This document shows, piece after piece, positions 36,001 to 39,000 of a stretch of DNA of 64,000 bases (the first letter of the stretch is position 1; each line of letters begins with the position of its first letter). Position numbers: made by a program. Origin of the DNA: Sulfurospirillaceae bacterium (GTDB lineage: Bacteria; Campylobacterota; Campylobacteria; Campylobacterales; Sulfurospirillaceae); contig JAWVXD010000001.1 in the NCBI GenBank assembly GCA_033723415.1, forward strand, positions 384,001-448,000, written 5' to 3'.

Positions 36001-39000
36001 CTAGAAGGACAGATCAAGCCTTCTCTTTCATATTGTCTTAGTGTTTGAGGATGGATAGTCAAAACTTTTGCAACCACACTTATAAGATATACCGGTTCGT
36101 CATATGCATGCATTTTTAATGTCCCCTTTTCTACTCTGGTAATTTTTCTTTCATCATCTTTTGTAGATTTTCATCTAGAGCGTTTACATCAGGAAGCACG
36201 ATATTTGCTTTCAAATACAAATCGCCTTTTTCTTGTGTTTTTCTATTGATGACACCATAGCCTTTTACACGAAATTTTTGTGCATTTTTCGTATTTTCTT
36301 TGATTTTTAACGTAACTTCTTTATATGGAGTCTCAACAGTTACTTTTCCTCCAAATAATGCGGTTTTTAAGTTGATATCAACACTTCTTACAAGATCATC
36401 TCCGTCTCTTTCATATACTGGACTGTCTGCCACCTCTACACTTAAAAAGAGGTCGCCTCTTTGCCCCTGATAAGATTTACCTTTGCCTTTGAGACGCATT
36501 TTCTCACCATTTTTAATACCTGCTGGAATCTTGATATCAAAATTTTCATTATTAAAAGATATTGAATGTTTACCGCCAAGAATAGCAACATTGAAAGGTA
36601 TCGTTATTCTAGCTTCCACATCTAGATCCGGAGCTTGAAATCCTGAAAATCCTCCATTTGAAAATCCTCCGGAGAACCCTCCTCTGCTAAAACCGCCAAA
36701 TCCGGCACCACCCATGCCTCCGCCAAAAATATTTCTCAATATTTCATCTAAATCAGCATTTCCGCCTTGACTAGATGCGAAATCATGGAAATTTTGGCCA
36801 CCAAACATATTATCGCCGTATTGATCGTATTTTTTTCTTTTTTCACTATCTTTTAGTATTTCATATGCGGCATTGATCTCTTTAAATTTTTCTTCTGAGC
36901 CCTTTTCTTTATTTACATCAGGATGATATTTCCTTGCTAATCTGCGATATGCTTTTTTTATTTCATCTGCAGATGCATCACTTGAAACACCTAATGTGTC
37001 GTATAAACTTGCACTCATACCTTTTTACCTCTTGTATTAATTTGATATGAATTCTACCATAAAACTTTAGTCTATGTCAATCAAGGTTATAAATATTTGA
37101 TCGTTCTAGTCATTTATATTATACATAAAATTATACATAAAACTAAGAAAAATAGATTTTTTTTGCTTTATAAAAGATTGTCAGCTCTTCTATGGTAAAA
37201 TAATACAAACTCTATATGGGAATAGCTAATGATGAAAATACTTATGATAGAAGATGATTTAGAATTGGCAGAGATCTTATCTGAATACTTAGAACAATTT
37301 GATATCCATACGACTACTGCAGAAGATCCGTATATAGGGCTATCTTATCTGGATAACCAAAAATTTGATCTTGTTATTTTAGATTTGACTTTACCAGGTC
37401 TTGATGGTTTGCTCGTATGCAAAGAGATAAGAAAAAAGCACTCTATTCCTATCATAATATCATCCGCAAGACACGATTTGACAGATAAAGTAACAGCTTT
37501 GGAAAACGGCGCAGATGATTATATCCCAAAACCATATGATCCACTTGAACTCAGAGCCAGGATCATGAGTTTGCTAAGAAGACATAACCAAGATTTTGCA
37601 ATAACAAAAGAATCCAAAAAAGAAGAACCGGATCTAGTGTTAGATGAAGACAAAATGATTATAAAACATATGGGAAAAGAACTCAATTTAACTGTTGGAG
37701 AGTATGAAATATTGGCATATCTCATTAAAAAAACAGGTGGCGTTGTATCTAGAGAAGAGCTTATATATAATGTTGATTCTATAGGAGAAGACACTACAAA
37801 TAAAAGCATAGATGTCATCATCGGGCGCATAAGAAATAAATTGAACGAAAATCCAAAAGAACCAAAATATATACACTCAATTCGAGGTATTGGCTATAAG
37901 TTGACACAATGAACAGAAATTCTATCTTTTACAGTATCACCTTTATCTTTATCATCTCTATAGCCAGTATCATCTTGGCTTTTATGTTTTTGATGGATTA
38001 TGATCAACAAAATTATACTGAGAAATTAAATAACAAATACACTATAATTGCCAGAGCTACCCTCTTCCATCTAAATAATTTCATAACAGAAAAAGAGTTG
38101 GAGAAGCAGGTAGAAGGCTATAATATGAAAGAAATGAACGATGCAAAAGAAAAGAATAGAATCATAAAACATGCTTTGGTTTTGCAAAAGATCACTAATA
38201 GAATAGGTACTAGCTCTATACTTGTATATGAAAAACAAAATTATTTGCTTATTGAGCATGGCAGTACGGTACTTCTATTGAAAGACAATGATTATCAACC
38301 TTACAGATATCATACGATAAGAAGTATTTTTGCATTGATATTACTTATAATCATAACTGCATATATTTTAACCATTAGAAAGATAAAACCTCTTAGGAGA
38401 TTAAAAAGAGAGATGAACAAATTTGCCAAGGGAGACCTGCAAATATCTTGTGCTACTGATGGTGAAGATGAGATATCTCAAGTAGCAAACTCATTTCAAA
38501 ATGCTGTTGATCAAATCAATAAACTTAACAAATCCAGACAATTATTTTTGAGAAATATTATGCATGAGCTAAAAACTCCTATTACAAAAGGAAGAATAAG
38601 TGTAGAAATGATAGGAAACAGCAAACAAAAACAAAGGCTTATAAATGTTTTTGAAAAGTTAGAATTACTTATAAATGAATTTGCCTCTATAGAACAAATA
38701 ACCTCTGGCGAGGGCATAAAAAACGTCAAACCTTATAGACTTAGTGACATTATAGACGAAGCAACAGATTTGGCTATGATTTCAGAAAATCAAATAACTA
38801 TTGATATCGAAAAGAATTATATAGTACATGTTGACTTTAGATTGTTTACAACTGCAATAAAAAATATTATCGACAATGGAATAAAACACTCAATAGATAA
38901 AAAAGTGATTATAAAAACAACTGAGAATCAAATCATATTTATATCTTTGGGAAATCCTCTTAAGTACGATCTTTCTCACTATATAGAGCCATTTACTCAA

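Follow-up and report, generated by a model that had tools for sequence, protein, structure and literature searches.

The window analyzed here is a 64,000-nucleotide stretch of a Sulfurospirillaceae genome (designated G000; 2.43 Mb in 17 contigs, completeness 100). It contains a cbpA-hspR heat-shock pair and a two-component regulatory operon, separated by a short gap (Table 1). In the HtrA-bearing congener G011, the corresponding genes are arranged in the order secA-lolC-HK-RR-htrA-cbpA-hspR, with an htrA of 1413 bp encoding a 470 aa protein composed of one Trypsin_2 and two PDZ domains; the same order recurs in G210, a member of another family. The cbpA product of G000 is 78% identical to that of the G011 gene facing htrA, and the response regulator shares 80% identity with its G011 counterpart, which lies downstream of htrA. 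Positions 37229-39141 encode an OmpR-type regulator followed by an ArsS-family kinase, a CprRS/ArsRS-type layout on which the domain content and the NF038389 score agree. The wider order in C. jejuni we take to be htrA-RR-HK divergent from cbpA-hspR. The coordinates of the two flanking genes bear out an earlier statement, in the genome-wide survey's note, that only 210 bp lie between cbpA and the response regulator at the place of htrA.

Table 1. Features of the htrA-less locus, and the DUF7488-PDZ gene encoded elsewhere in the genome.
Feature	Position	Strand	Evidence
hspR, MerR-type heat-shock repressor	35742..36113	-	Pfam MerR_1 3.6e-16; NCBIfam HspR NF047375 118 bits, cut-off 105
cbpA, DnaJ-like co-chaperone lacking a zinc finger, left-hand neighbor of the lost gene	36131..37018	-	DnaJ + DnaJ_C
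210-bp gap at the htrA place of congeners	37019..37228	.	23% G+C
cbpA promoter TTGACA-18-TG-TAGAAT with overlapping imperfect inverted repeat, retained	37051..37085	-	promoter scan 11/12 with TG
22-nt tandem direct repeat, two 11-nt units	37121..37142	+	identical in G010
Regulator operon promoter block, extended -10, retained	37180..37201	+	aligned with its homologous block in the htrA-RR spacer of congeners that carry htrA
OmpR-family response regulator, right-hand neighbor of the lost gene, CprR/ArsR-like in position	37229..37912	+	Response_reg + Trans_reg_C
ArsS-family sensor histidine kinase	37909..39141	+	NF038389 457.9 bits, cut-off 250; HAMP, HisKA, HATPase_c
LolC/FtsX-like permease	39146..40351	-	FtsX + MacB_PCD
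secA, C-terminal zinc motif intact	40355..42946	-	Pfam SecA domains; SEC-C 1.1e-8
DUF7488 + 2 PDZ protein, 336 aa	contig C4:26851-27858 (outside the window)		PF24314 9.6e-43, profile 2-146/146

Four genome-wide searches, all conducted in six frames and hence independent of annotation, confirmed the proposed absence of an HtrA/DegP-type protease from G000. The PF13365 profile, which was positive in 14 of 14 known genomes, yielded no matches in the whole genome even at E<=10, and PF00089, which detected the G011 protein at 1e-23, yielded none at E<=0.1. With G011 HtrA as a tblastn query, only PDZ-based matches and no trypsin-fold domain were obtained in G000. A custom HMM built from 13 HtrA protease domains reached a best E of 0.29 in an unfiltered search (--max) of all 12,163 stop-to-stop ORFs with a length of 50 aa or more. 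Among the PDZ proteins found in G000, none combined a His-Asp-Ser triad with a C-terminal PDZ domain and none had an S1 domain. Draft status of the genome (17 contigs) raises the question of whether htrA is present but was missed by assembly or gene calling, and the region does break assemblies, as the Trypsin_2 match begins within 1.1 kb of a contig end in 5 of 11 HtrA-bearing draft congeners (G003, G006, G004, G001, and G007). The argument for absence therefore leans on the syntenic site, which is unbroken inside contig C1 and is thus not an assembly gap, and on the closed genome of the closest sequenced relative, G010, a single contig that is likewise negative; together with the annotation-independent searches, these observations leave such an artefact next to no credence. 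G000 and G010 truly lack the periplasmic protease HtrA.

Within the genus, Trypsin_2 is found in 11 of 14 genomes (G000 being one of the 14), a recount in agreement with the earlier figure. For the family, the domain was recovered in 56 of 61 genomes including G000; the earlier count of 54 of 60 is corrected to 56 of the 60 others. The genus members without the domain are G000, G010 (1 contig, 100% complete), and G005 (90% complete, 210 contigs). Although G005 had been counted as a third HtrA-less congener, we rejected it as uninformative: its best response regulator match is 57% identical and adjoins a PAS protein, the closest match to cbpA, at 44%, is dnaJ, with no orthologous cbpA found, and its matches to the window represent a paralogous dnaJ / racRS-like / recR locus plus another two-component system. 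In a tree of the PflC-like DUF7488 protein, G005 is the sister of HtrA-bearing G007. The closed G010 genome is collinear with G000 at the locus (77% nucleotide identity) and has the same architecture, with a cbpA-regulator gap of 189 bp in which both promoter blocks are kept, which upholds the earlier reading of a true deletion common to the nearest relative. The flanking proteins of G000 are 88-90% identical to those of G010 and 78-80% identical to those of G011. The same single-gene tree, rooted at its midpoint, places G000, G010, and two database proteins in one clade (support 100/99), with the other 11 congeners grouped apart (90/96).

Examination of the gap itself showed no htrA remnant in G000 (best tblastn E of 8.3), and the gaps of G000, G010, and G281 gave only chance-level matches to htrA. 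The left ~70 bp of the gap align with the cbpA-proximal block in 8 of the 9 upstream regions aligned from HtrA-bearing congeners (that of G007 failing to align there), and the cbpA promoter/inverted-repeat block is conserved in G000, G010, and the same proportion of those regions, as is the imperfect inverted repeat at 37065-37085. This repeat, lying over the cbpA promoter, may resemble an HspR operator. On the right, ~50 bp align with the block 3' of the htrA stop codon in all 7 HtrA-bearing congeners aligned there (G013, G006, G002, G012, G011, G008, and G007). Ten bases shared by the gap and the 3' end of G011 htrA were considered as a remnant and rejected, being by their context the conserved intergenic -10 block. 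Survival of both flanking promoter blocks indicates that the deletion took essentially nothing but the htrA reading frame with its ribosome site. This description is approximate, because some 90 bp in the center of the gap (roughly 37091-37179) cannot be assigned with confidence to one or the other intergenic region of congeners with HtrA and ~70-90 bp of intergenic DNA are also gone relative to G011 (228 + 51 bp versus 210 bp).

Taken together, these results make it highly probable that a single deletion of htrA in the ancestor that G000 and G010 share took essentially the open reading frame and ribosome site, spared the promoters, and left no homologous stand-in. The gene lost would have been the lineage's only S1/HtrA-type protease gene, excised from the interval that has the cprRS/arsRS-like two-component operon on one side and the divergent cbpA-hspR pair on the other. 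The cbpA promoter/putative operator block and the regulator operon's own extended -10 promoter would have been left intact, and with both promoters in place the neighboring genes probably stay expressed. Since the loss, the locus would have diverged to about 77% nucleotide identity without HtrA being regained, a persistence which suggests that the protease is dispensable in the niche of this lineage.

It had also been suggested that the deletion was a by-product of the nearby prophage/dif region, that is, a recent side effect of rearrangement in G000. There are phage-like ORFs at a distance of 3-7 kb on the left side (phrog_3108 at 31246-31779 and, further out, a tail-fibre PHROG at 30562-30942), but intact hspR and cbpA genes separate the prophage from the gap. 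Furthermore, G010 has the deletion, yet its sequence is homologous to the window no further than the end of hspR (query position 43), with no Sel1 protein in the 1.5 kb examined on its left side, and G281, from another family, lost htrA at the same site. Because the prophage/Sel1 flank is not common to G010 while the deletion is, a prophage origin is very unlikely, and we favor the single ancestral deletion.

The absence of HtrA directs attention to the remaining PDZ proteins of G000. The DUF7488-PDZ protein had been regarded as the only PDZ candidate left, but CtpA (S41), RseP (M50), and a GspC-like protein carry PDZ domains as well. The last of these, a 272-aa protein on contig C2, was considered as a novel protease and set aside as GspC-like (TIGR01713 8e-23, positions 28-254/259, below the curated cut-off). 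The DUF7488 protein has a signal peptide-like N-terminus and two PDZ stretches, and its AlphaFold model (pLDDT 92.1) has as its best structural match chain D of a C. jejuni flagellar periplasmic scaffold (9hmf_D, E 4.5e-25), followed by DegP/HtrA; chain E of the same entry was matched at E 8.9e-19 with a TM of 0.84 on the target. Sequence identity to the 9hmf chains is 24-26%, and from their lengths and architecture we infer that chains D and E are PflC. According to Drobnic et al. (2025; PMC12222027), PflC (Cj1643) is a medial-disk protein of the C. jejuni motor whose catalytic triad is absent and whose active site is atrophied. The G000 protein has the same protease-like:PDZ:PDZ layout as PflC, and likewise no conserved triad: none of His48, Asp71, and Ser116 is conserved among 43 aligned homologues. 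Of the 14 congeners, 13 have a member of the family, irrespective of HtrA status. The DUF7488-PDZ protein is accordingly predicted, from its modeled structure, to be a PflC-type flagellar scaffold and not a protease.

Could this protein have regained protease activity and now substitute for HtrA? The catalytic Asp of HtrA aligns to Asp71 of the G000 protein in BLASTP (most homologues have Asn), and a Ser of the G000 protein aligns with the catalytic Ser of HtrA. However, the His region fails to align with HtrA, G010, which has the same htrA loss, has Gly at the Asp71 position, and both the lack of conservation of all three residues across the 43 homologues and the atrophied active site of the published PflC (PMC12222027) speak against activity. 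Such a substitution is extremely improbable.

Comparison of known periplasmic quality-control families among two HtrA-less (G000 and G010) and three HtrA-bearing (G011, G008, and G002) genomes showed one S41 copy in each of the five and no S8 or Skp (Skp/OmpH) matches in any. M48 matches numbered 1, 2, 1, 1, and 2, and parvulin matches 1, 2, 1, 2, and 1, in G000, G010, G011, G008, and G002, respectively. Compensation through copy number in these families was therefore rejected, as the extra copies do not track HtrA status in the five genomes. The known quality-control candidates remaining in G000 are CtpA (S41), an M48 peptidase, RseP, and one parvulin-type chaperone. HtrA-bearing congeners have these in equal numbers, apart from the second M48 match of G010 and G002 and the second parvulin match of G010 and G008. 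There is no homologous stand-in for HtrA; the only HtrA-like fold left is the PflC-type scaffold without catalytic residues. A clade-specific periplasmic protease or chaperone, either highly divergent or non-homologous, could instead have taken over the role, so that the function was replaced and not lost. The copy-number comparison spanned only five known families, and H. pylori requires the proteolytic activity of HtrA (PMC6692382), both of which leave room for a replacement. Against it, neither Pfam nor tblastn nor the custom HMM detected an S1 fold, the family counts do not follow HtrA status, and the sole HtrA-like fold is a scaffold common to HtrA-bearing congeners without a conserved triad. 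We consider a replacement of this kind unlikely.

A route by which HtrA loss is tolerated is known from the laboratory. As described by Zawilak-Pawlik et al. (2019; PMC6692382), H. pylori N6 htrA deletion and S221A mutants carry suppressors in SecA, within its zinc-binding C-terminal tail (R837K, C841Y, C843X, C852Y, and P858L). Both those mutants and G000/G010 are Campylobacterota without HtrA protease activity, known in the present case from the genes. No H. pylori-type suppressors were found in the SecA tail of G000 or G010; the tail is identical in the two, with all cysteines present, and differs from that of HtrA-bearing G011 at two positions only, both outside the cysteines. A zinc-motif regular expression had no match in the other loci, since the motif here ends differently, and most of those loci lack secA. 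Whereas the H. pylori strains are laboratory mutants with SecA-tail suppressors, G000 and G010 represent a natural, ancient loss with the tail cysteines intact.

Across 401 high-quality Campylobacterota genomes, HtrA was found in 382, and an S1 domain (PF13365, PF00089) was absent from the remaining 19, which are spread over 8 genera; similar losses thus occur in about one in twenty related species. In G281, of a family other than that of G000, only the open reading frame was lost at the same site in comparison with HtrA-bearing G210. Loss of htrA in C. jejuni reportedly costs heat and oxygen tolerance. A C. jejuni Tn-seq paper gives htrA/Cj1228c as non-essential, with many transposon insertions, and the adjacent cprR/Cj1227c as essential; C. 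jejuni has kept htrA beside cprR, whereas in the G000/G010 clade the gene is gone. The view that HtrA is near-essential in Campylobacterota therefore does not hold, given its non-essentiality in C. jejuni, the 19 genomes without an S1 domain, and the need for secA suppressors in H. pylori only. In Helicobacter and Campylobacter, HtrA draws interest both as a virulence factor and as a drug target, and a recent review regards it as conserved throughout the group, reporting it in every one of the 34 Campylobacter species and 5 further epsilonproteobacteria analyzed (PMC9953165). Our counts agree with the review for most genomes (382 of 401) and differ for the 19 genomes of 8 genera.

Long-lived natural HtrA-null species, including those with the closed genomes G010, G164, and G281, indicate that the protease is dispensable in some Campylobacterota, and offer a comparative handle on H. 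pylori's need for it. A broader scenario, which we regard as rather improbable, is that HtrA is lost recurrently by ORF-precise excision at the cbpA / htrA-cprRS junction, sparing both promoters (a pattern seen in two families), with periplasmic quality control rewired through a factor non-homologous to HtrA; if so, these natural null species would reveal why H. pylori cannot do without HtrA. The value of the present case lies in a well-documented gene loss and not in a new function, with no compensating mechanism found in the families compared.

One further element of the gap is the 22-nt tandem repeat, which has no second occurrence in G000 when up to 2 mismatches are allowed and is absent from the htrA-bearing loci searched, bar one 4-mismatch match upstream of htrA in G012. 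An identical copy is present in G010 (locus L012, position 2866), where the flanks have diverged around it, and the repeat is possibly a box for an OmpR-type regulator.

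The loss of the only HtrA/DegP gene from this Sulfurospirillaceae bacterium (G000) is real, old and tidy, and is common to a small clade. The genome-wide survey's note placed the loss between cbpA and a response regulator, and the gene layout at the site shows its coordinates and gene order to be right (see table). The congener G011 has an identical gene set in the same order, with the addition of a 470-aa gene encoding Trypsin_2 (PF13365) and two PDZ domains between the regulator and cbpA.

Features at and around the former htrA site (window coordinates)
Feature	Position	Strand	Description
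Small ORFs	29695-33866		row on the same strand; phage matches at about 30-33 kb (tail-fibre PHROG, phrog_3108)
Sel1-repeat protein	33920-35692		590 aa, 14 Sel1 repeats; follows the phage-like ORFs
hspR	35742-36113	-	
cbpA	36131-37018	-	
Gap cbpA/regulator	37019-37228		210 bp, 23% G+C
Inverted repeat	37065-37085		imperfect
Tandem direct repeat	37121-37142		perfect, 22 nt, 11-nt period
Extended -10	37193-37201		conserved
Response regulator	37229-37912	+	OmpR-type
Histidine kinase	37909-39141	+	ArsS-family
Permease	39146-40351	-	LolC/FtsX-like
secA	40355-42946	-	

All searches for an HtrA in G000 were negative, bearing out the absence reported in the note. With the entire assembly (2.43 Mb, 17 contigs, completeness 100) translated in six frames, PF13365 found nothing up to E<=10, while the same search was positive in 14 of 14 control genomes; likewise, PF00089 gave none at E<=0.1, with G011 reaching 1e-23 in the same run. 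Using the G011 HtrA as a tblastn query (small words, E up to 100) resulted in PDZ-based matches only. Thirteen HtrA proteins supplied the protease domains for a custom HMM, namely ten genus rows (nine genomes in all, with L018 and L019 being the G011 and G008 loci) plus G041, G188 and G210; when run unfiltered against every stop-to-stop frame of 50 aa or more in G000 (12,163 in all), the HMM gave a best E-value of 0.29. Additionally, no htrA remnant was found in the 210-bp gap, and the site lies within the interior of contig C1.

Comparison with HtrA-bearing congeners resolved the gap into three parts. The ~70 bp adjoining cbpA align with eight of the nine HtrA-bearing upstream regions in the alignment (all but G007, whose row did not align there) and contain a strong promoter-like site on the same strand as cbpA (TTGACA, 18 nt, TG-TAGAAT; 11/12 matches) as well as the imperfect inverted repeat, which we take to resemble an HspR operator. 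The ~50 bp before the regulator start codon, which include the conserved extended -10, align with the block after the htrA stop codon in the seven HtrA-bearing congeners aligned there. In several HtrA-bearing congeners (L001, L003, L005, L009 and L011) htrA is followed by a terminator-like inverted repeat, seemingly its own terminator, that runs up to and into the conserved extended -10 of the regulator operon; the repeat is degraded in G000 and its closest sequenced relative, G010. For the middle ~90 bp, the only alignment is a loose one to the AT-rich promoter region of htrA. Here, upstream of the regulator operon, lies the 22-nt tandem repeat, which has no second copy in G000 even when 2 mismatches are allowed, and is repeated identically in G010 (L012 2866-2887) amid diverged surroundings; it is possibly a binding site of the adjacent OmpR-type regulator, and may serve as an autoregulatory box. 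Judged from these alignments, the deletion appears to have taken the ORF and its ribosome site, plus roughly 70-90 bp of intergenic sequence by comparison with G011 (228 + 51 bp in G011 versus 210 bp in G000).

Trypsin_2 was matched in 11 of the 14 genomes of the genus, G000 counted, and in 56 of 61 in the family. G010 (single contig, completeness 100) follows the window collinearly for 3.4 kb (77% identity), and its gap at the corresponding site measures 189 bp. In a tree of a DUF7488-PDZ protein (18 rows, from 13 genus genomes and five database proteins; G013, with no match, is absent), G000 and G010 group with two database proteins in one clade (support 100/99), and the remaining 11 congeners form a second (90/96). 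Since the gap is at the same place and the two genomes share a clade, the simplest reading is that htrA would have been lost once, in their common ancestor. The divergence since then, with flank proteins 88-90% identical between G000 and G010, makes this loss an old one. The third genus genome without a Trypsin_2 match, G005, was set aside as uninformative: its 210-contig assembly reaches 90% completeness, and its only matches to the window are a dnaJ/racRS-like/recR locus and a further two-component system next to a PAS protein; the regulator of that system is 57% identical (the G011 orthologue is 80% identical). No orthologous cbpA was found in G005, which is sister to the HtrA-bearing G007 on very short branches of the DUF7488-PDZ tree. 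Furthermore, in five of 11 HtrA-bearing drafts (L002, L003, L008, L009 and L011) no more than 1.1 kb separates the start of the Trypsin_2 match from a contig end; the region often breaks assemblies, and htrA absences in fragmented genomes should be interpreted with care.

The suggestion that the deletion was a by-product of rearrangements in the neighboring prophage region did not hold. Because homology with G010 ends at the end of hspR, the phage/Sel1 flank not being common to G010, and because the prophage and the gap are separated by an intact hspR-cbpA pair, the deletion is older than and independent of that flank.

The note overstated the rarity of such a loss. In a sample of 401 species genomes from the Campylobacterota, each at least 95% complete, Trypsin_2 was present in 382 and missing from 19, and PF00089 matched none of these 19 (0/19). 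They span eight genera in six families and include the closed or nearly closed G164, G281 and G280. A C. jejuni Tn-seq preprint lists htrA (Cj1228c) as non-essential and cprR (Cj1227c) as essential. In G281 the order is hspR-cbpA-225 bp-RR-HK (gap at L056 2581-2805), and in its HtrA-bearing congener G210 (L059) it is HK-RR-htrA-cbpA-hspR; G281 has lost htrA independently and just as tidily, at the same cbpA/regulator junction in another family. In the HtrA-less G062 (family f7), lolA and secA directly adjoin cbpA with a 143-bp gap, and that stretch (L055 2872-7030) yielded no lolC, kinase, regulator, htrA or hspR; in G164, G054 and G280 the regulator is not adjacent to cbpA. A 2023 review gives HtrA in 34/34 Campylobacter species and 5/5 other epsilonproteobacteria examined (PMC9953165), and a narrow search, on HtrA in Sulfurospirillum and htrA essentiality, found no published report of HtrA-less Campylobacterota. 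The loss in G000 and G010 is one of several in the phylum, a solid comparative observation of moderate interest that brings no new mechanism.

How the clade copes was approached by comparing the HtrA-less G000 and G010 with the HtrA-bearing G011, G008 and G002. In that order, matches numbered 1, 1, 1, 1, 1 for S41, 1, 2, 1, 1, 2 for M48 and 1, 2, 1, 2, 1 for parvulin-type PPIases, with 0 throughout for S8 and for Skp/OmpH; no copy number among these families followed HtrA status. Whereas H. pylori htrA mutants carry changes in the SecA zinc-binding tail (PMC6692382), the tail is the same in G000 and G010 and retains its cysteines, so the H. pylori route was not followed. Replacement by a non-homologous factor we consider unlikely; it is most economical to regard HtrA as simply dispensable in the niche of this clade.

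The best remote HtrA relative in G000 is the 336-aa DUF7488-PDZ protein, with two PDZ domains, encoded outside the window (contig C4 26851-27858, minus strand). An AlphaFold model from 43 hand-picked homologues (of 228 in the database; identity 84% down to 32%) had a mean pLDDT of 92.1 and a pTM of 0.80. Its top Foldseek match was 9hmf_D (E 4.5e-25), a chain of the C. jejuni flagellar periplasmic scaffold, along with 9hmf_E of the same scaffold (E 8.9e-19, TM 0.84 on target); DegP, DegQ and the H. pylori and C. jejuni HtrA structures came behind. The paper behind 9hmf describes PflC (Cj1643) as HtrA-derived, with a protease:PDZ:PDZ layout, a lost catalytic triad and a role in building the medial-disk lattice (PMC12222027). 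In the G000 protein, His48, Asp71 and Ser116 all fall at positions unconserved in the alignment, with Gly in place of Asp71 in G010. This PflC-type protein occurs in 13 of the 14 genomes of the Sulfurospirillum-like genus irrespective of HtrA (L028-L040). It is a structural relative and not a stand-in, and we rejected it as a divergent protease; the PflC-type family may extend beyond the one structure that defines it so far. Other PDZ proteins in G000 are CtpA (S41), RseP (M50) and a GspC-like protein. The latter (272 aa, C-terminal PDZ; contig C2, L026:1483-2301, minus strand) matched TIGR01713 at 8e-23, under the cut-off, and hints at a type II secretion system.
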